59,004 nucleotides of DNA, from contig CAMVAB010000001.1 in assembly GCA_947165335.1 (NCBI GenBank), positions 1 through 59,004 on the forward strand, in the 5' to 3' direction. The position numbers and the translations under genes were made by a program. The notes beneath the pieces are model-generated. The model did no database searches. It saw nothing but the letters and a program-made list of their open reading frames with translations, and was not told where the DNA came from. Below, piece after piece: positions 33,971-59,004 of the stretch. Numbering within the stretch: the first letter of the stretch is position 1; every line of letters starts with the position of its first letter. Source of the stretch: an uncultured Pseudomonadota bacterium. Its GTDB lineage: Bacteria; Pseudomonadota; Alphaproteobacteria; Rs-D84.

Positions 33971-34382
33971 TCTTATATTTCCCGTCTATGTTTTGTATGA
34001 TATCACATCCATATGTTTTTCGCAATTGATAAACAGCATTTTCCACTGCATGCGTTTTTACATTTGGCAGAACACCAATCATATCTTTTAATTCACGCAT
34101 TGTAATATTTGGATTTTTATAAAGAAAAACTATGATTTTATGCTGCAATGAAGGCAAAACAACATCACTTCCGAAAACATCATTTATAATGTCTTTGTTT
34201 TCAAAAGCCGCCAAAATGGCAGTTTGCAATTTCGGAACTGAAATAGGTGCTTTGATTTTAATATCATCGAACACGACATCTGCGACATTTGGCGAATCGA
34301 CCATATCTGCACCCAAATCAGTCAGAATACGATACCAACATTCATCCGAAGCAAAGATTTTTATATTTTCCAACATACCCAC
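33957..34382 (-). CDS. Hypothetical protein with C-terminal winged-helix (BirA-N-terminal-like HTH)
   Basis: The C-terminus ...NITMRELKDMIG...VENAVYQLRKTYGCDIIQNIDGKYKI resembles the BirA/HTH_11 wHTH. Overlaps the birA start by 14 nt. Confidence 0.45.
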   Translation of the reverse strand: MGMLENIKIFASDECWYRILTDLGADMVDSPNVADVVFDDIKIKAPISVPKLQTAILAAFENKDIINDVFGSDVVLPSLQHKIIVFLYKNPNITMRELKDMIGVLPNVKTHAVENAVYQLRKTYGCDIIQNIDGKYKIGRI

Positions 34383-34425
34383 ACAATAGCCGATTTCAGC
34401 GCATTGTGCAAGATTTTATTATATA

Positions 34426-34668
34426 CTAGATAGTATGCGAATTGGACGGGATAAATTTAGTAAAATCTTCGAGATTTGCACCAGTAGACGCTAATATTTT
34501 TGAAATACTGTTGGTTGACGGCCATCTGGGTTGACCTTGTTTAGACCAACGTTTGCTTTTATTAAATGTTGTTGGGTCCAGACCGCTACACTTTGCAAGT
34601 CCCGAACAAGACATATTGTGTTCCATAGCAAATTTTTCTATTGCCGACCAAACATCATCATGTGTCAT
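34426..34668 (-). CDS. CI/LexA-like repressor N-terminal HTH domain only (no S24 peptidase domain)
   Basis: ...SCSGLAKCSGLDPTTFNKSKRW...PRWPSTNSISKILASTG is typical of the N-terminus of alphaproteobacterial S24-family repressors. The ORF stops after about 80 aa. Confidence 0.6.
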   Translation of the reverse strand: MTHDDVWSAIEKFAMEHNMSCSGLAKCSGLDPTTFNKSKRWSKQGQPRWPSTNSISKILASTGANLEDFTKFIPSNSHTI

Positions 34669-34843
34669 AGTATTTTTCTCCTGTAACTGCATCAGTTTCC
34701 CAATTCAACATCCATATATTACGGCTTTTTCAAGCAAATTTTCATTTGTTTGTTTTCCTAGGTAAAAAGGCAGAAAAATATACAAAAAAATTTTTTTGAC
34801 AAAAATACTTGACAAATCGTATTTTATGTATTACATTTCGATT

Positions 34844-35026
34844 CGTCAAAGGATGAATAATCGTTTGACTATATCGGGCCCAGAGTTTTCAGACTCCCTC
34901 CTACATTCTCTCTCCTCTGGACTTTGGGCCCAAACACGAGTTTCGGGATGCCCATTTCTTTTTCTCCTTTCCTTCCTTTCAGGGCATCCAGAAAAACACC
35001 ACCCAAACGGGTGGTGTTTCTTTTTG
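34844..35026 (+). ncRNA. Candidate small RNA with CU-rich (anti-SD-like) loops
   Basis: Promoter TTGACA(34809)-17 nt-TACATT(34832). Three stem-loops, two with large loops (CUCCCUCCUAC and CUCCUUUCCUUCC). Terminator aaacaccaccc-aaac-gggtggtgttt followed by a T-run. Confidence 0.35.
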
Positions 35027-35037
35027 AAACAGGACAA

Positions 35038-36060
35038 TTACATCCGCAACAAATATTTTTTCACGAACCAGCCTGAATTCAACTGAATTGCCAAATTTAA
35101 AAAATATTTTTTAAAATTGAAACAATTCGCCCATCTGGTCCAACCAAACAAAGACGCCATCTGTCCGATTGAAAGTTCATTAAAATCTTTGTGTTGAATT
35201 ATGTTTATAATTCTGTTTTTCAATCTTTTTGCTGTTTTTTTTCGCATTAAAATAAAACCATTGAAATGCCGATAACCTATGAAAGGGATTCCATCCAAAG
35301 TTCTTTTCAAATCAGCCTTTGATAAAATCATACTTAAATTTTGTTCAAGAAAGTTTTTAATTTTACTTTTCATGGAATGCAGTTGTTTTTTATCATTGCT
35401 GTACAAACAGAAATCATCGCAATATCGAATATAATCACGACAATGTAAATCATGTTTTACAAATTGATCAAGTTCATTTAAATAAACATTTCCCATCCAC
35501 TGCGAAGTAAGATTACCAATAGGCAAATTAGTATTTCCCCCCACAGAATCTATTATTTCAGATAACACACGCATTATGCGTCTGTCATGAATTTTACGTT
35601 TTACGATATTTTTCATAATTTCATGGTTAATAGATGGGAAAAATTTCCGTATATCACATTGTAAAACATATTTATTGCGCCGTATGAAGTGCATAGTTTT
35701 TTGTGATGCCCCCAAAAGTCCACGTCCAGGGATACAAGCATAAGAATCTTTGATGAAAGATTTTTGCCAAATTGGCCCCAAAACATTTATCAAAGCATGA
35801 TGGACAATATGGTCGGGATACAATGGCAATTTATAAATTATGCGTTGTTTTGGTTCATAAATTTTGAAAGTTTTATAACATGAAGTTTTATATTTACCGG
35901 TTTTAAGACTATTTCTTAATTTTTCTATAAATTCATCTTTGTGTGCCAGAAAATGTTTAACAGATTTCTTTGATTTTTTGCTTTTAATAGCCTTTTTTAC
36001 AGCTAATTCGAAATTTTCTTTTGAAATGAATTTGTCCCACAAATTTTTATAAGTTTTCAT
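35038..36060 (-). CDS. DGR-type reverse transcriptase
   Basis: Motif 4 IGNLTSQ (the DGR signature I/LGxxxSQ), YCDD catalytic box, N-terminus NLWDKFISKENFELAVKKA. The ORF-track start at 36096 is also possible. Confidence 0.9.
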   Translation of the reverse strand: MKTYKNLWDKFISKENFELAVKKAIKSKKSKKSVKHFLAHKDEFIEKLRNSLKTGKYKTSCYKTFKIYEPKQRIIYKLPLYPDHIVHHALINVLGPIWQKSFIKDSYACIPGRGLLGASQKTMHFIRRNKYVLQCDIRKFFPSINHEIMKNIVKRKIHDRRIMRVLSEIIDSVGGNTNLPIGNLTSQWMGNVYLNELDQFVKHDLHCRDYIRYCDDFCLYSNDKKQLHSMKSKIKNFLEQNLSMILSKADLKRTLDGIPFIGYRHFNGFILMRKKTAKRLKNRIINIIQHKDFNELSIGQMASLFGWTRWANCFNFKKYFLNLAIQLNSGWFVKKYLLRM

Positions 36061-36108
36061 TTTTATTCTTCTTTTGTTTTCTTGAAACATCACCACAAAA
36101 AGAACACT

Positions 36109-36435
36109 TTAAGAAAAACTGTAATATCTTTGTACATGAACAACGGTTCCAACGAAAGGTATTTGGTTTGAAAATTCTTTTACCTGTTTAGTTAAAACAC
36201 TGCTGCCTGTAAACAAAACACAAACTTCGCCATCCAATAAGAATTGTAATTGCAAACATTCTGTGCCGTCTTTTTGTTTTGAACGTCTTATTCTGTAATC
36301 GATAACTTTGATTTCGCGGTTAACAATTTCATCAAGACGCTTTTTATTCCCAGGCATAGGCGTTTGATCTTTTGCAAAAACCGAAAATTTTGGACATTCT
36401 GTATTTTTTATTTTTTCAATTTCATCAAATGTCAT
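36109..36435 (-). CDS. 108-aa ORF between TR and RT (candidate non-Avd DGR accessory protein)
   Basis: Intact ORF with a purine-rich stretch (AAAGAGAGAAAA) just upstream of the ATG. Predicted beta-rich and basic (KVIDYRIRRSKQKDG). No resemblance to the helical Avd. Confidence 0.5.
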   Translation of the reverse strand: MTFDEIEKIKNTECPKFSVFAKDQTPMPGNKKRLDEIVNREIKVIDYRIRRSKQKDGTECLQLQFLLDGEVCVLFTGSSVLTKQVKEFSNQIPFVGTVVHVQRYYSFS

Positions 36436-36460
36436 TTTTCTCTCTTTTTTTTTGTATATT

Positions 36461-36513
36461 GGATATCCCGGACGTTCGCCACGATACAGAACAAACTACT
36501 AGTCCAGATATCC
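36461..36513 (-). other. Long hairpin in the TR-downstream spacer of the DGR RNA
   Basis: GGATATCCCGGAC...GTCCAGATATCC form a roughly 12-bp stem with one bulge. Confidence 0.5.
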
Positions 36514-36703
36514 CCTGCGTATTGTGTTTGATCCAAAGAAAAATAATTTTCCCGGACAGGTTACATCGTCCCACCTTTGATGTGAAAAGGTCTTGTCCAA
36601 ACAGATATCGTTGTCGTCGATACCTGAAAAGTGCCAATGCACTTTGTCCTGCAGGTTAGCCAAACTTTGATCCCTTTGATCTCTGTTGTACCTTTCCAAA
36701 GGA

Positions 36704-36838
36704 GCGACCGACCCGAAAAGCCCGACGCGCATAGCTTCGTTGTTCCGGGCGTTGTTGCCACAGTTGTTCGTGCAATTCGAAGCGCACGAGGCGGCGGACC
36801 CGTTGTCGTTGTTGAACACCCAAAGCGACGCCACGGGA
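36704..36838 (-). repeat. DGR template repeat (TR)
   Basis: 135 nt, GC-rich, non-coding (no start codon). 25 adenines in the sense strand, mostly in AAC codons. Matches VR1 and VR2 except at adenines. Confidence 0.92.
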
Positions 36839-37207
36839 AAAACCCCACGCCACACAACAGCCATCGCACAACCGATTACGACGATGCAACCCAGTTCCGT
36901 ATGGCGGAACCATTCCCAAAAGATTCATGGTGAAATCTTTTGATGATGTATTCTTGTGTTCAAACACATCATTAAAAGATGGTTCTCTCCCCCCCCGTGT
37001 GTGTGGGGGGGGAACCTATTGACCTTCTTTTATAAAGCAAAGGTTTTTCAGGCCGAAACAAAGAAGGTCAATTTCGGCCTGTCCCGCTTTACTGCGGGAC
37101 AGGCGATGTGGGGATTCTCCCCACACCCCTGTTTGCGGCATATCGTGTTTCACACGATATGCAAACCGTTCTGCCGTGCCGCGTGTATTCGCCCCGTTTC
37201 GTTCACA

Positions 37208-37675
37208 TCATTGTGCGACCGACCCGAAAAGCCCGACGCGCATAGCTTCGACGTACCGGGCGTAGTAGCCACAGTAGTACGTGCAACTCGAAGCGCACGA
37301 GGCGGCGGACCCGTAGTCGCCGTTGAACACCCAAAGCGACGCCACGGGATGAGTCATTTTACACCAACAATAACGTCCATATTTTTCACTGCCCTGAACA
37401 AGGTTGGTTTCCCCGTTGTTCGTATCAGTCAACTGCGATTCGTAATACCCCATCGATTTACCCTGGCCCGTATTTAAACACGCAGAAATACCGTATATCA
37501 TGCCGTATGGAAACGTCGCATTCCAAAGCCCTGCTGTCGCATCGTATGTCCCCCCAGCAGTCCCGGCAACCGTTGGATCCAATACCACCACCACAGAATT
37601 ATCAACCGCACACATCGTCGTCGCAAATGACGGTATCGTTATCATCATCATCAATGCTGTTATAATCCGTTTCAT
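37208..37675 (-). CDS. DGR variable protein 1 (155-aa secreted Cys-rich protein)
   Basis: Start MKRIITALMMM with an AAGGAAAG RBS and a signal peptide. C-terminus is YCWCK...SLWVFNGDYGSAASCASSCTYYCGYYARYVEAMRVGLFGSVAQ. Confidence 0.85.
   Translation of the reverse strand: MKRIITALMMMITIPSFATTMCAVDNSVVVVLDPTVAGTAGGTYDATAGLWNATFPYGMIYGISACLNTGQGKSMGYYESQLTDTNNGETNLVQGSEKYGRYCWCKMTHPVASLWVFNGDYGSAASCASSCTYYCGYYARYVEAMRVGLFGSVAQ
37215..37349 (-). repeat. DGR variable repeat 1 (VR1)
   Basis: 135 nt colinear with TR. 11 mismatches, all at TR adenines. Confidence 0.92.
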
Positions 37676-37769
37676 CTTTTCTTTCCTTTTGTTTTGCTTC
37701 TTCCCCGTCCGCTTCTGATTCTTCCCTTGGGGGGAATACTCGCGCAGCAAGAGAGGATAGAATCCCCTT

Positions 37770-38240
37770 TTACCACACCGATTCATACATCGCAGACCGG
37801 AACGTTGTATTCGTTTTAACCGCTGTCATACAATCGTTCGTGCAATTCGATGCACATGTTGCTGCATCCGTATAGGTATCTAAAAACATCCAATATGATG
37901 TTATCCCTGTTTCTGTTCCATACGAATATACGGGTTCCATTTTGCACCAACAATATTTGCCTTGGTCTACGGATGATGTGTATAAATTCGTTTGTGGGGT
38001 TGCGTATGTCCCGCTTATTCCATTACATGCTGCTATGCCTGTTACGCGTTTCGTTGTATTATTTCCATAATCAAAATCAACATACCATATTTTGCCATTG
38101 TTCGATGATGTCCCAGTCGTCCCGGCAATATTCTTTTTCAATATGCCAACATAAGTGTTGTTTTTCGCACACACCGTAACAGCATTTGCAATATCAATTC
38201 CAAATAAACATACAAAAAATAATATTAAAAATTTTTTCAT
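37770..38240 (-). CDS. Paralog of the DGR variable proteins with a decayed (non-TR-matching) VR region
   Basis: Signal peptide and YCWCK motif. C-terminus is ...TDAATCASNCTNDCMTAVKTNTTFRSAMYESVW. Only a 15-nt identical core (37836-37850) is shared with TR. Confidence 0.75.
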   Translation of the reverse strand: MKKFLILFFVCLFGIDIANAVTVCAKNNTYVGILKKNIAGTTGTSSNNGKIWYVDFDYGNNTTKRVTGIAACNGISGTYATPQTNLYTSSVDQGKYCWCKMEPVYSYGTETGITSYWMFLDTYTDAATCASNCTNDCMTAVKTNTTFRSAMYESVW

Positions 38241-38252
38241 GTTCCTTTCCTT

Positions 38253-39041
38253 TCACTCTGTTAACAGTTGCCACCCTGTAAACGAATATCCTGAACGCGA
38301 CGGCGGTGTTTGTGGCAAAACTATGTTTCCTTCGTAAAGACATGTGTTTGTCATCATAGTGTTTTCGCCGTCCGACCATGTCAAAGACACTGTTGGTGTT
38401 GGCAAATCAACACATGTATCACCCGGATTATTATCACAGCGCGTCGTTCGCGTGTATTTCGCATATGGTGATGTACAATTGCCGTTCGTCAATTCACCAA
38501 ATGTATTCGTATTTACTGCGACATCGTAATATCCATTTATACAATCACCCGCAACATACGATACGCAACTTCCCCCCGACAGATACCCATTCGTACATAA
38601 ATTAACCACATTCCCCATCAAAAATCCGTTATATACAGGGTCAAAATCATCCGGCAGCACAATTAACGAATATCCACCAATTTGACATATACCATCACCA
38701 GGCGCCGTAAATGTGGATTCTGTAATGCCAATATTATATGTGCCGTTCATACATGATCCCTGAGTAAACGATGTACAACTGCCACCGGTCAAATATCCGT
38801 CATCACACAAAGTGTGTGTCCCACCCATTACAAAACCATTATATATCGGTTCAAAATCATCCGGAATTTCAATTAATGTATATCCACCAAATTGACATAC
38901 ACCACCAACGGGTGAAACAAATGTAGAATCTATGACATTTGATGCAACGCTGTAACCATTTTGACATGTTGCAGACGCAAAAGCATCCATTGCAAATAAT
39001 TGCAATATAAATAATCTAAAAAATAATCTATACCTACTCAT
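38253..39041 (-). CDS. Secreted Cys-rich tandem-repeat protein with a C-terminal Flg_new repeat
   Basis: GGGGGAG RBS and signal peptide. Two repeats of about 70 aa (C.NG...C.GGY.LI..PDDF.P.YNGF.MG....LC..GYL.GGSC). Ends in GYSFTGWQLLTE. Confidence 0.7.
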   Translation of the reverse strand: MSRYRLFFRLFILQLFAMDAFASATCQNGYSVASNVIDSTFVSPVGGVCQFGGYTLIEIPDDFEPIYNGFVMGGTHTLCDDGYLTGGSCTSFTQGSCMNGTYNIGITESTFTAPGDGICQIGGYSLIVLPDDFDPVYNGFLMGNVVNLCTNGYLSGGSCVSYVAGDCINGYYDVAVNTNTFGELTNGNCTSPYAKYTRTTRCDNNPGDTCVDLPTPTVSLTWSDGENTMMTNTCLYEGNIVLPQTPPSRSGYSFTGWQLLTE

Positions 39042-39250
39042 TACTCCCCCACAAAACAACCACCGTAAATCGTTATGGTGGTTGGAGGTCAGTAGCTATA
39101 AAAACAGATATAGTGTGCTTATTCTATCTTTCGATATTATTCAGCATCCCTCCAACCAATATGTTGGAGGCATTTTTCGTCTGCTCTGCGACGCTGTTTT
39201 CCAATCAGGGCTACTGCACCCAGGCACAAGAACCCCTTGTGCTTAAGTCC

Positions 39251-39280
39251 AGTGTAGTAAAAAAACGATAATACTGTCAA
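39251..39280 (-). promoter_or_regulatory. Putative promoter of the DGR target operon
   Basis: On the minus strand: TTGACA, 18 nt, TACACT. A leader of roughly 200 nt follows. Confidence 0.45.
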
Positions 39281-39320
39281 CGGCTTTTTTCGACACGAAC
39301 ATATTCTCAAAAGCCGATTT

Positions 39321-41558
39321 TTACATGAAATTCATTGGGTTGACGTCTATTTTAACACGAACATTCGTTGGCGTTTTTATTTTGTTTAACCAATCACGAA
39401 CTATCGGTTGTAAATTTGCATTCGCATCACCTGATACCAAAAATCTCATACGGTACCAATTACGAATTTGATATATTTGTGCCGCAATTGGACCCATTAT
39501 CTTGCCACCGTTCAATTGTGGCGCAACCCGTTTTAAATCATCACAATATTTTTTAAGCGTTGTTTCTTTGCTGGCTTCGACAATTATCGCAACCAATTGT
39601 CCAAACGGTGGCATTTTTGCAGCGCGTCTTGATTCCATGTCAACCCCCATAAATTCATCCCTGTCGCCCGCACAAATCGCACGAATAACCGGATGTTCAG
39701 GGTTATATGTTTGTAATAATACGCGTCCTGGAAATTCACCACGACCCGCACGTCCGGCAACCTGGAATAATTGTTGGAAAGTATGTTCGCCAGAACGAAA
39801 ATCAGTCCCAAACAGTCCCATATCCGCATCAACAACACCAACAAGTGTTAAATTTGGAAAATGATGTCCTTTGGCCAGAATCTGGGTCCCAATCACAATA
39901 TCTATTTCGCCATTTTCCATTTCGTGAACCAATCTTTCCAATGCTTCGCGCGAAATCATTGTATCAGACGATACAATGGCTGTTTTTGCGTTTGGAAATT
40001 TAACCGAAATTTCTTCTTCTATTTTCTCTAACCCTGCCCCACGCATAGAAACATCCGAACCACATTTTGGACATTTTTTGGGCATCGCAACAGTTTTTCC
40101 ACACATGTGGCACACCATTTTATTCAGATGTTTATGATAATTCATGGACATTGAACATTCAGGACATTCACACACCCAACCGCATTTTTTACACTGAACA
40201 ATTGGTGCAAAACCACGACGATTTATAAACAACATAACCTGTTTATGTTCATCCAAAGTATTGCGTATTTCTTCGCATAATTCAGCCGATAAATTACCAC
40301 TTTTTTCTTCGTCATTTATTTTGTAAATTTCTGGACGCGATGTACGCATATCTATGGTTTCAATTTTTGGCAATGTCGCCCCACCAAAACGCGATGTCAG
40401 ACGAATGCGTTTATATTTCCCCAGCGCAACATTATGCAAAGTTTCAATAGACGGGGTCGCACTGGCCAATATAATTGGGAACCCTGAAATTTTACCCCGC
40501 AACACAGCCATATCGCGCGCATGGTAATTTCCCATATCTTCTTGTTTATACGATGGGTCATGTTCTTCATCAACAATAATCAACCCCAGATTTTGCCATG
40601 GTAAAAACAAAGCACTGCGTGTTCCAACAACAACCCTTATGTCGCCACGCGCAACACCCTGCCAGATATTGCGACGACGCGCAGATGTTAAATTGCTGTG
40701 CCACACCACAGGCGGATTTCCAAATCTTTGTTTAAACCGATCCATAAATTGTGCTGTTAATGCGATTTCAGGCATCATCAACAAAACTGATTTCCCATTG
40801 TTATACGCGTTTAACAGCGCATCAAAATAAACCTGAGTTTTACCAGACCCTGTTATACCATCCAACAAATGCACGCTAAATTCATTTTTATCTACGGCCG
40901 TTTTTAATATATCTGCAGCCGCCCTTTGTTCATCGTTTAAAACAACATTTTTCGTATCAAAATATTTATATATAAAATCAGTGTTTGTTTTTTCGCGAAC
41001 AACAGATTCAACCAATACACCACTTTTTATCATTCCGCGGACAACAGCGTTCCCAACATGCGCGATATTTACAATATCGTTTATTGACATTGCGTCATTA
41101 TCATTAGACTGAAATGCATCAAATACAGCCTGACGCGCATCTGTCATTTTAATTTTCGAATCAAAATTAACCCGATATAACTGTTCCGTCTTTGGTGGTA
41201 AAAACGCATCAGGCACATTTAATATCAGCCGCAAAACTGCGCCCGGCGTCATCAGCGTCCATTGCGACATTTTATAAATCCAATCTATATCAGCACGTGA
41301 TAGATGCCCGATATTACAAACTTCTATGATTGGTTTAATTTTTGAAATATCTAAATTGCCATCGCCACTTCCAACAATAACACCAATATATTGGCGATTC
41401 ATCACAGTCACACGAACAAAATCTCCGGTATCAGCGTTGGCTGTTAAACGATAGTCATAACCAGTATTTATGACATTTGGAATTAAAACTTTTACGATAT
41501 CGCCATCTTTGAACATATGTATAAAATACTTGTTTTTTTTTGTTTTTTCAATAATCAT
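39321..41558 (-). CDS. priA: Primosomal replication restart helicase PriA
   Basis: Walker A GITGSGKT, DEEH box and a Cys-rich zinc-binding insertion. The start may be the internal Met at 41516. Confidence 0.9.
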   Translation of the reverse strand: MIIEKTKKNKYFIHMFKDGDIVKVLIPNVINTGYDYRLTANADTGDFVRVTVMNRQYIGVIVGSGDGNLDISKIKPIIEVCNIGHLSRADIDWIYKMSQWTLMTPGAVLRLILNVPDAFLPPKTEQLYRVNFDSKIKMTDARQAVFDAFQSNDNDAMSINDIVNIAHVGNAVVRGMIKSGVLVESVVREKTNTDFIYKYFDTKNVVLNDEQRAAADILKTAVDKNEFSVHLLDGITGSGKTQVYFDALLNAYNNGKSVLLMMPEIALTAQFMDRFKQRFGNPPVVWHSNLTSARRRNIWQGVARGDIRVVVGTRSALFLPWQNLGLIIVDEEHDPSYKQEDMGNYHARDMAVLRGKISGFPIILASATPSIETLHNVALGKYKRIRLTSRFGGATLPKIETIDMRTSRPEIYKINDEEKSGNLSAELCEEIRNTLDEHKQVMLFINRRGFAPIVQCKKCGWVCECPECSMSMNYHKHLNKMVCHMCGKTVAMPKKCPKCGSDVSMRGAGLEKIEEEISVKFPNAKTAIVSSDTMISREALERLVHEMENGEIDIVIGTQILAKGHHFPNLTLVGVVDADMGLFGTDFRSGEHTFQQLFQVAGRAGRGEFPGRVLLQTYNPEHPVIRAICAGDRDEFMGVDMESRRAAKMPPFGQLVAIIVEASKETTLKKYCDDLKRVAPQLNGGKIMGPIAAQIYQIRNWYRMRFLVSGDANANLQPIVRDWLNKIKTPTNVRVKIDVNPMNFM

Positions 41559-58036: not shown

Positions 58037-58245
58037 CGGCTTAGGAAGGGACCGAAAACTGATTTGTTCCCCTCTGGCTAGAGGGGTGCCGGAACGGCGG
58101 GGTGTTGCAGGTTCTCCCCTTGGGGGGAGTACCGGCGCAGCCGGGGAGGGAGGATCCCCCGCCACAGGCGGGGAATAAAAAACACCCACTTTCGTGGGTG
58201 TTTGCGTGTTGCCGTGCCGCGTGTATTCGCCCCGTTTCGTTCACA

Positions 58246-59004
58246 TCATTGTGCGACCGACCCGAAAAGCCCGACGCGCATAGCCTCGCCGCCCCGGGCG
58301 CGGGAGCCACAGTAGCTCGCGCAATTCGAAGCGCACGAGGCGGCGGACCCGCGGTCGCCGTTGAACACCCAAAGCGACGATGATGCATTTTGTTTATTTC
58401 CATTTAATGGTTTATATCCCGTTGCCTTACACCAACAGTATTGGCCCGTGCTATTTTTATTATATGATGCATCGGTAACGTATAATTTTGACCATATCTC
58501 GCCAGTTGCTTCGTCATATGTTATTGTGCCATTACTGTATCTTGTAAATATATCGGCTGCTATTGCGCCTTTTTCCTGACCAGCCAACGATGTATAGTTT
58601 GCTAAGAATTCATATGGATCCATTTGGCCGCCAACGGCAGATTCTACATTAGCTACAAAATACGCCATACCCGCATCCAATGTTGGTTGGCAACTCGCTT
58701 CACCGTATACTGTGCCATAACTGAATTCTGTTTTCCATTCGTTGACCGCTAAATCGCTTAATGCCGCACTTTCCTGGGTACATACACTTGCCCCTTCAGA
58801 ATCAACAGTCCCATCGCCATATGCAGAACAATAATCTGTATTATTATTCCACCCATGTCCGTAAGAATGATTGCCATCTATCGATGCATTTAATGTGGAC
58901 AGGTCAAATCCACGCACACGCCAGCCGCCGAATGTATATCCGGTCTTTGTCATTGTATTTGTTGGTAATGTTATCACACTGTCGTATGTACATGTGTTCG
59001 CTGT
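58246..59004 (-). CDS. DGR variable protein 2 (Flg_new repeats + large Cys-containing domain + VR2; 5' end outside window)
   Basis: The frame stays open to the window edge (TANTCTYDSVITLPTNTMTKTGYTFGGW...). C-terminus is YCWCK...SLWVFNGDRGSAASCASNCASYCGSRARGGEAMRVGLFGSVAQ. Confidence 0.85.
   Translation of the reverse strand, partial: TANTCTYDSVITLPTNTMTKTGYTFGGWRVRGFDLSTLNASIDGNHSYGHGWNNNTDYCSAYGDGTVDSEGASVCTQESAALSDLAVNEWKTEFSYGTVYGEASCQPTLDAGMAYFVANVESAVGGQMDPYEFLANYTSLAGQEKGAIAADIFTRYSNGTITYDEATGEIWSKLYVTDASYNKNSTGQYCWCKATGYKPLNGNKQNASSSLWVFNGDRGSAASCASNCASYCGSRARGGEAMRVGLFGSVAQ
58253..58379 (-). repeat. DGR variable repeat 2 (VR2), remote from TR
   Basis: 127 nt colinear with TR 36704-36830. 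16 mismatches, all at TR adenines. Confidence 0.9.

Follow-up and report, generated by a model that had tools for sequence, protein, structure and literature searches.

A diversity-generating retroelement with a predicted OB-like accessory protein and a conserved RNA hairpin in an Enterousia-like alphaproteobacterium

The 59,004-nt contig CAMVAB010000001.1 (assembly GCA_947165335.1), analysed here over its whole length and hereafter called the window, carries a genuine diversity-generating retroelement (DGR), all parts of which lie on the minus strand. We consider it very probable that this is a chromosomal DGR of a Candidatus Enterousia-like alphaproteobacterium, in which an RNA that holds the template repeat (TR), a reverse transcriptase (RT) and a small accessory protein with a predicted OB-like barrel diversify two target proteins. 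The evidence comprises a TR from which two variable repeats (VR1 and VR2) differ at adenines only, an RT whose closest structural relative belongs to the DGR of the Bordetella phage BPP-1, a spacer RNA with compensatory base changes, and variation among strains of a sister species that is confined to the repeat. As a DGR it joins a very large class that is already known. The accessory protein, the RNA element and the target scaffold, as predicted, depart from the types described, and the former two reach well beyond this genome.

Template Repeat and Variable Repeats

A repeat search of the window returned a direct repeat pair of 135 nt with 92% identity, the TR and VR1 (Table 1). Compared base by base on the minus strand, VR1 departs from the TR at 11 positions, all of them TR adenines (seven A to T and four A to G changes), for which the hypergeometric probability is 1.0e-9 given 25 adenines in the 135-nt TR. 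All 11 changes fall at codon positions 1 or 2, as do 24 of the 25 TR adenines, and 20 of these adenines are contained in ten AAC codons. The TR translation reads ...VFNNDNGSAASCASNCTNNCGNNARNNEAMRVGLFGSVA, and that of target 1 reads ...VFNGDYGSAASCASSCTYYCGYYARYVEAMRVGLFGSVAQ followed by the stop codon. A first-pass annotation of this DNA had described the equal length of the two repeats, the 11 mismatches on TR adenines, the 25 adenines placed mostly in AAC codons and both translations, and the base-by-base comparison bore out each of these descriptions; a check for mismatches at TR bases other than adenine gave none in either VR1 or VR2. VR2, which that annotation lacked, was found by searching the whole window with the TR: its 16 mismatches over 127 nt are likewise all located at TR adenines (p = 2.5e-14). 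It is 21.5 kb away from the TR, and the element has an adjacent target (VR1) as well as a remote one (VR2). Because both VRs differ from the TR only at TR adenines, the TR is the master copy.

The last 26 nt of the repeat (CGCGTCGGGCTTTTCGGGTCGGTCGC) contain no adenine, have a G+C content of 73% and are the same in TR, VR1 and VR2. This end had been likened to a region of the IMH type (for 'initiation of mutagenic homing'); its adenine-free, G+C-rich composition stands, whereas the IMH label holds as a resemblance only.

The repeats might instead be ordinary paralogous or duplicated sequence, or else the relic of a dead DGR in which the adenine pattern is purely historical, a reading to which we give scarcely any credence. 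It could draw on the lack of population data for this contig, on the absence of matches when JGI metagenome contigs were scanned with the invariant 27 nt that close the repeat, and on the presence of a non-diversified paralogue next door to target gene 1. Nevertheless, two independent VRs in which all 27 of the differences fall on TR adenines are not the product of ordinary divergence, and the paralogue itself displays what ordinary divergence looks like, since its mismatches occur at C, T, G and A. This paralogue had been considered as a third target and was rejected on the same ground, its similarity to the TR extending over 36 nt with mismatches at all four bases alike. Moreover, the RT, the accessory open reading frame (ORF), the TR and the RNA are all intact and conserved, and strain-level hypervariation of the VR is seen in sister species (see below).

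On the minus strand the unit consists of the TR, a structured RNA of 268 nt, a 108-aa OB-like accessory gene, the RT and a terminator-like hairpin, the TR, which shares its strand with the RT, lying 643 nt upstream of where the RT starts. The same minus-strand order, with target gene 1 ahead of the TR, a spacer of about 270 nt and a 108-aa ORF before the RT, had been read in the first pass and is retained here. The hairpin just 3' of the RT stop is probably the end of the TR-accessory-RT transcription unit, as judged from its match to the terminator consensus; a promoter scan returned sites no more frequently than in shuffled sequence. The gap between target gene 1 and the TR had been called hairpin-rich, and indeed it holds, at 36988-37125, a cluster of three perfect G+C-rich hairpins of 8 bp or longer (for example CCCCCCCC-ACACACAC-GGGGGGGG), a kind of which the whole 59-kb window has six. 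Hairpins with G/C runs like these also flank the TR module of locus L053 (related loci are cited here by L numbers).

Sequences just past the VRs were also compared. The 3' flanks of VR1 and VR2 are identical although the rest of the two genes is unrelated; this identity could reflect a recent duplication or a recognition element. In another locus with two VRs (L034) the two 3' flanks differ from each other. Hairpins with GAA or GAAA loops begin 49-52 nt past both VRs, the one after VR1 having an 11-bp stem about 52-77 nt past the VR1 end (~37138-37162). The myDGR features taken from BPP-1 include an IMH/IMH* pair and a G+C-rich GRNA-loop hairpin 4-34 bp after the VR (PMC6602519); such a hairpin was set aside as a general feature, being present after both VRs here and not conserved among relatives.

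Table 1. Coordinates of the element and neighbouring features in the window.
Feature	Position	Strand	Basis or remark
Template repeat (TR)	36704..36838	-	25 adenines, 20 in 10 AAC codons
Variable repeat 1 (VR1)	37215..37349	-	11/11 mismatches at TR adenines
Variable repeat 2 (VR2), remote	58253..58379	-	16/16 mismatches at TR adenines, 127 nt
Structured spacer RNA 3' of TR, 268 nt, positionally equivalent to BPP-1 'Sp'	36436..36703	-	Covariation
Conserved hairpin motif of ~70 nt at spacer 3' end	36454..36532	-	Covariance model R1, 77.8 bits, E 8e-16
Accessory gene, 108 aa, predicted OB-like beta-barrel	36109..36435	-	AlphaFold2 model and family profile
DGR reverse transcriptase gene, 340 aa	35038..36060	-	bRT similarity, IGNLTSQ, YCDD
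Terminator-like hairpin just 3' of RT stop	34994..35019	.	11-bp stem, T-run both sides; consensus match only
Target gene 1, 155-aa secreted Cys-rich protein	37208..37675	-	VR1 as last 45 codons
Target gene 2, partial, runs off contig end	58246..59004	-	Translation; VR2 as last 42 codons
Gap between target gene 1 and TR, hairpin-rich	36839..37214	-	Perfect G+C-rich hairpins
VR1 3' flank, 44-45 nt, same as VR2 3' flank, not in TR	37171..37214 (VR2: 58209-58252)	-	Sequence comparison
Non-diversified paralogue of target 1, 156 aa	37770..38240	-	~35% identical to target 1

Reverse Transcriptase

The RT start was placed at the ATG at 36060 and not at the GTG at 36096, as judged by alignment to the RT of the Bordetella phage (bRT). 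This phage enzyme is also its best relative among solved structures (8ub7; E 3e-45 over residues 2-316), followed by group II intron RTs, some of them deposited as 'retron-type', at about 1e-18. The protein matches phrog_1423 at 8.8e-100 and RVT_1 at 9e-13. A group II intron or retron identity was rejected because both NCBIfam models score far under their cutoffs (group II TIGR04416, 118.5 bits against a cutoff of 300; retron St85, 73.6 bits against 235); additionally, Rfam, searched over 34000-39500 with E up to 1 allowed, showed neither an intron RNA nor a retron RNA. The IGNLTSQ segment and the YCDD box reported in the first pass are both present, and the former fits [I/V/L]GxxxSQ, the motif-4 signature of DGR RTs (PMC7826257). 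The residues aligned to bRT Arg74 and Ile181, which promote adenine misincorporation (PMC7826257), are kept as well. By these comparisons the RT groups with DGR RTs and not with those of group II introns or retrons.

An exact-protein look-up of the RT returned no record. Its identity is 48-49% to viral RTs that have the same accessory gene, 46% to the RT of locus L038, 36% to that of the archaeal virus ANMV-1 and 31% to bRT. These values fit a phage-type DGR which, we infer, the Enterousia lineage may have captured and re-aimed at cellular secreted proteins.

Accessory Protein and Its Family

The 108-aa ORF between the spacer and the RT showed no match in Pfam, NCBIfam or PHROG. Its AlphaFold2 model (pLDDT, the predicted local distance difference test, 85.5 with an alignment of 36 sequences) is a five-stranded barrel with the order b1-b2-b3-helix-b4-b5, in which DSSP assigns strands to residues 41-51, 59-67, 70-76, 94-101 and 104-107 and a helix to residues 79-87, a succession that fits the OB-fold order. 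Only one helix is longer than 5 residues and the model is not a helical bundle. The OB domains of RuvBL2 (domain II), RPA, SSB and HIN-200 appear in the Foldseek list of this model as non-significant matches with TM (template modelling) scores of 0.3-0.54, and 'OB-like barrel' is used here as a description of the predicted structure and not as proven OB-fold membership.

An element of canonical BPP-1 type, with the textbook mechanism and the 108-aa ORF as a very divergent Avd, appears very unlikely. The ORF is Avd-like in size and mildly basic (pI, or isoelectric point, 8.8; family mean 8.2), the accessory gene of L038 occupies the slot between VR and TR that Avd holds in BPP-1, and avd genes are described as very poorly conserved (PMC5758913). 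Additionally, the figure legend of the ANMV-1 paper shows an 'Avd' arrow, and the small basic ORF that adjoins the RT there, besides a TR-encoded 64-aa ORF, is a member of the OB-like family; the arrow is likely to stand for this member, and earlier work probably labelled it Avd by size and charge. However, the bAvd model PF22296, which finds BPP-1 Avd at 7e-36 as a positive control, returns neither the 108-aa ORF nor the homologue in ANMV-1 even with E up to 1 allowed; hhalign gives 0.2% probability for the accessory family against Avd; and none of the Avd chains in the PDB is matched by the family profile at E up to 10. The predicted barrel and the hairpin motif described below, undetected in BPP-1, speak against this alternative too. 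By profile and model comparison, then, the 108-aa ORF is not an Avd. Four accessory classes, Avd, HRDC, MSL and CH1, are named in PMC5758913 and PMC8632793, and the family fits none of them when set against their descriptions.

The family comprises 755 clusters at 50% identity (E <1e-3 among 1.8 billion representatives) and 481 clusters in a second database, none of which carries a name or a Pfam domain; its alignment contains invariant and near-invariant residues. When the 59-kb window was searched with the family profile, a single ORF was found; of 49 related loci scanned in the same way, 43 have one such ORF each, and in all cases it adjoins the RT. The seven distant members examined all lie directly after an RVT_1 gene, which six of them overlap; the targets are Mtd-like in five of these loci, most of which belong to tail or structural modules of phages, and adenine-specific TR/VR pairs were confirmed in four (L047, L048, L049 and L052). 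In ANMV-1 (KP703175, L054), where the TR/VR differences are also adenine-specific, the member AJP62065.1 (5001-5297) is placed directly after the RT and is annotated in GenBank as a hypothetical protein, as is the one located right after the RT of a Methanosarcinales virus; Caudoviricetes vir525 (BK063673) likewise has a member directly 3' of its RT. Two further members form the C-terminal part of fusion proteins whose RTs share 38-40% identity with the window RT, and a third (P0136), to which this figure does not extend, is fused to an RVT_1 domain. The position of the gene thus ranges from the VR-TR gap in L038 to the interval between spacer RNA and RT in Enterousia and the place after the RT in viruses.

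Alternatively, the 108-aa gene may be a passenger of the RT clade, for example of phage origin, with the RT and RNA alone carrying out retrohoming as assumed for the accessory-less 'architecture A' DGRs. We regard this as very unlikely, although 29% of catalogued DGRs are reported without any accessory gene (PMC5758913), the link between RT and accessory gene rests on genomic association and not on biochemistry, and the L053 module described below has a TR-RNA and a diversified target with neither RT nor OB-like gene within 4 kb. A passenger would hardly be expected to keep its association with the RT while its position shifts from before the TR to the RNA-RT interval, to the far side of the RT and into the RT itself, nor to be kept in reduced chromosomes of ~0.75-1.0 Mb across RT divergence down to 52% identity; the occurrence of the gene in phages and an archaeal virus and the invariant residues of the family point the same way. 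Retention under genome reduction, together with the fusions, argues for a function with the RT. We favour an accessory component that takes the place of BPP-1 Avd by position and association and not by homology, and whose most probable role is to bind, with the RT, either the DGR RNA or the single-stranded cDNA.

Two other small ORFs were noted near related RTs. The BPP-1 gene bbp4 (L056 1527-1775, 82 aa, overlapping the brt end) holds in that phage the position that the OB-like gene holds in other phages; it was considered as a family member and rejected, hhalign showing no similarity. A further conserved ORF of ~103 aa follows the OB-like gene in four phage loci (L048 5322-5633, L049 5320-5631, L051 4322-4633 and L052 4321-4629); Pfam gave no match for it, and the cassette in the window lacks it.

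Spacer RNA and Hairpin Motif

The spacer that follows the TR is strongly conserved among relatives and behaves as a structured RNA. RNAalifold on an alignment of 25 spacer sequences gave 34 consensus pairs, 17 of them with compensatory changes; 98.3% of the cells are paired, compared with 28-48% when the partners are slid by 1-3 columns, and none of 500 shuffles reached any of the observed measures. At its 3' end lies a hairpin with the layout AAUACA ... stem ... UAGUAG ... GCGAA ... stem, in which AAUACA just precedes the hairpin and the invariant UAGUAG-like and GCGAA-like segments are found in its upper part. In BPP-1 the RNA downstream of the TR wraps around RT and Avd and acts in cis as the primer of cDNA synthesis; bRT binds to a long stem-loop of its Sp region (nt 95-139), close to the 3' end (10.1101/2023.10.23.563531).

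A covariance model of the hairpin (R1, 28 seed sequences, all 14 pairs covarying) was run on the window and all related loci. It gave exactly one strong match in the window, and a further 46 DGR loci, more than 15 of them outside the seed, have one strong match apiece. These include phage loci and ANMV-1 (3899-3965 of L054), the motif being visible between TR and RT in the viral elements too. No R1 match was obtained in BPP-1 or in four distant loci without the accessory gene (L039 and the DPANN loci L041, L043 and L044). An Rfam scan of 34000-39500 at E up to 1 returned only sub-threshold chance matches near the terminator. In L039, L041 and L044, whose TR stands immediately upstream of the RT, a stretch resembling AAAUACAG...CUAGUA...GAAA was seen by eye upstream of the TR, ~170 nt upstream of the RT start; R1 does not score it, and the impression that these loci carry the motif upstream of the TR was dropped as unsupported by the model.

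Host, Related Loci and Population Variation

The host is a Candidatus Enterousia-like alphaproteobacterium of the order Rs-D84 with a reduced genome. Candidatus Enterousia and related uncultured Alphaproteobacteria of this order have genomes of ~0.75-1.0 Mb, and DGRs are unmentioned in their description (PMC12306168). The genes that flank the element look ordinary and chromosomal from their translations (a PriA-like helicase and a BirA-like ligase are among them). Scanning a single genome for each species yielded 45 related loci, ~40 of which come from Candidatus Enterousia or from other Alphaproteobacteria of gut or rumen that are uncultured; the RT identities of these are 52-69%. In 24 of the 45, TR/VR pairs whose mismatches lie at adenine in at least 80% of cases were found in the same order as in the window, and 11 of these 24 have at least one pair in which every mismatch is at adenine.

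Variation within populations was followed in 90%-identity clusters of the target family that hold several variants each. In cluster 3, which belongs to a sister species, four target proteins have no variable column among the 100 before the VR domain and 13 among the 49 inside it, and all 13 correspond to adenine-containing TR codons (AAC, ACG and CAG) of the TR read on the L053 contig; clusters 6, 8 and 9 behave in the same manner. The first-pass annotation had proposed a search for hypervariability confined to TR-adenine positions, which is what this sister species displays, the comparison having been made there and not on the present contig.

The same sister species presents, in L053 (3177-3684 and 4001-4450), a TR whose spacer RNA bears the hairpin motif, and downstream of both a target that is diversified. 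Neither an RT nor an accessory gene was found within 4 kb of this module, which implies that the template module is separable from the enzyme genes. In the closest species-level relative (L001 4304-4767, P0230) the target gene is frameshifted inside the VR, and the same shifted reading occurs in three cluster members; the frameshift could be real or an assembly effect of the hypervariable region.

Target Proteins

Target 1 has a signal-peptide-like N terminus (its homologues begin MK[KR]) and seven cysteines, and belongs to a family of ~50 clusters confined to Enterousia-like genomes, among 47 members of which no Pfam match was found. Its AlphaFold2 model (pLDDT 86, and 93-98 over residues 51-150) has a beta-rich body and two C-terminal helices (124-141 and 143-151). 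The ten AAC-encoded residues (118, 119, 121, 130, 133, 134, 137, 138, 141 and 142) are mostly on the first of these helices and, from residue 130 on, follow an i, i+3, i+4, i+7 pattern, that is, a stripe on one face of the predicted helix. The near-invariant Cys127, Cys131 and Cys135 (i, i+4, i+8) would occupy a face other than that of the variable stripe, and natural variants of the target show the same periodicity as the stripe.

Surveys report VRs as 'systematically' C-type lectin (PMC8144416). For target 1 a VR domain of C-type-lectin, FGE-sulfatase or DUF1566 type was rejected, since there is no Pfam, PDB, BFVD or Mtd similarity and the VR is predicted to be helical. Foldseek of the model found no neighbour in the PDB (best E 0.34) or BFVD (best E 0.45), the target family profile found nothing among PDB sequences, and hhalign of the family against Mtd gave 0.2% probability. 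By these tests the target 1 VR lies outside the C-type-lectin fold, in so far as the predicted model is a guide.

Target 2, the larger protein of the two, has a stretch that resembles Listeria-Bacteroides repeats by eye, followed by the same Cys-rich VR domain at its C terminus. The targets would most likely act as variable proteins, at the surface or secreted, with which a partner-dependent gut bacterium binds ligands. Several relatives have the VR domain inside larger proteins, the downstream sequence of which looks repeat-like by eye. The paralogue of target 1 stands directly upstream of it, and past the paralogue, at 38253-39059, lies a protein of 268 aa that contains internal repeats and matches the Listeria-Bacteroides repeat weakly; the trio of target 1, paralogue and 268-aa repeat protein recurs in L001, L005 and L012, among others.

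Proposed Mechanism

By analogy with BPP-1 and from the conservation of the parts, the following course may be proposed. The TR and the spacer would be transcribed as one RNA, on whose structured spacer, notably its conserved terminal hairpin, the RT and the OB-like protein would assemble. cDNA synthesis, primed within this TR-spacer RNA, would copy the TR with misincorporation opposite adenines, and homology would then let the cDNA replace VR1 or VR2, with the 26 nt at the 3' end, adenine-free and G+C-rich, as a fixed anchor. From the genetic code, the ten AAC codons would become NNC, which gives access to 15 amino acids and to no stop codon; the GAC, ACG, GAA and ATG codons of the TR also hold adenines. 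The potential diversity for each target would be ~4^25 (1e15) DNA variants or ~1.4e14 protein variants.

Several points weigh against this account. The priming site, the RNA-protein contacts and homing are drawn by analogy with BPP-1 and from conservation, and the fold and the role of the accessory protein are predictions; Foldseek found no significant PDB neighbour for the 108-aa model (best E 0.055). No IMH/IMH* difference was found within the repeat, where TR and VR are the same up to the final repeat base, and the hairpins past the VRs are not conserved in related loci, in several of which the VRs are internal to longer ORFs. R1 gave no match in L046 and L050, both of which encode the OB-like gene. 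Furthermore, the view covers 59 kb of the genome, so that an Avd gene may be encoded outside it, and current activity in this genome is deduced from two diverged VRs and from the sister species and not from reads.

Significance

The picture of how DGRs work rests on one complex, the bRT-Avd-RNA of the Bordetella phage. In about a quarter of the DGRs catalogued no Avd can be recognised, and their mode of action has yet to be explained (PMC5758913). The present locus offers a concrete candidate for such systems, namely a conserved small protein with a predicted barrel and a conserved RNA hairpin that travel with one RT clade across bacteria, phages and an archaeal virus, and Avd-independent adenine mutagenesis thereby becomes directly testable by reconstitution.

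Tentatively, and with a little less than even confidence, we propose that DGR machinery independent of Avd may form a class of its own, marked by the OB-like protein of ~100 aa together with the AAUACA/UAGUAG/GCGAA hairpin RNA and common to bacteria, phages and archaeal viruses; that its members would so far have been entered as having 'no accessory gene' or, from size and charge, drawn as 'Avd'; and that the Enterousia targets may be a new variable-protein scaffold that carries its diversity on one face of a cysteine-anchored alpha-helix. If display on a helix is true, the C-type lectin would not be the sole architecture to tolerate variation on the DGR scale, and a second scaffold would be useful in protein engineering. 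A gut alphaproteobacterium of about 1 Mb or less that keeps hypermutation aimed at secreted proteins would also fit partner-dependent microbes which rely on rapidly variable surface ligands.

Comparison with Known Systems

The first-pass annotation had matched the element to the adenine-directed retrohoming defined in BPP-1, and this match is upheld by the adenine pattern and the RT; it does not extend to the accessory gene, to the gene order or, beyond a resemblance, to the IMH. Both the BPP-1 element (mtd-avd-TR-brt) and that of the window show adenine-specific transfer from TR to VR, an RT with [I/V/L]GxxxSQ, a Y-x-DD box and the residues matching Arg74 and Ile181, a VR at the 3' end of the target gene, an adenine-free G+C-rich repeat 3' end and a structured RNA downstream of the TR that ends in a long stem-loop. 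Unlike BPP-1, which has Avd and the order avd-TR-RT, the window element has the predicted OB-like barrel protein in its place and the order TR-RNA-accessory-RT. The spacer RNA, which has 140 nt in BPP-1, is about twice as long here (268 nt) and different in sequence, the hairpin motif of the window element is undetected in the phage, and RT identity to bRT is 31%. Additionally, the target in the window is neither Mtd-like nor C-type-lectin-like by any test run, and the element is chromosomal (cellular) with a remote second target, whereas BPP-1 is a phage.

DGRs have reportedly been described by Paul et al. in 2017 in reduced-genome organisms, that is, bacteria of the candidate phyla radiation (CPR) and DPANN archaea. 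The window element is like these in having a host genome of ~1 Mb or less, probably partner-dependent (PMC12306168), and small targets of unknown family, and the RT search also retrieved DGR RTs of Woesearchaeota and Aenigmatarchaeota at 33-38% identity. It differs from them in that its host is an animal-gut alphaproteobacterium, and from the DPANN loci L041, L043 and L044 in that these are without the OB-like gene and the hairpin motif; in L041 and L044 the TR stands immediately upstream of the RT (by eye), and in L043 it ends ~30 nt upstream.

The viral DGRs with the arrangement target-TR-RT-small ORF (ANMV-1, vir525 and L047-L052) differ from the window element in that most of them are located in tail or other structural modules and diversify Mtd-like (PF21916) or tail-fibre-type proteins, that their accessory gene follows and overlaps the RT, whereas it precedes the RT in the window, and that four of the loci have the extra ORF of ~103 aa. 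On the other hand, they have the same accessory family beside the RT, the hairpin motif between TR and RT in most cases, and adenine-only TR/VR mismatches in L047, L048, L049, L052 and ANMV-1, and their RTs, 36-49% identical to that of the window, are its closest relatives outside the Enterousia group.

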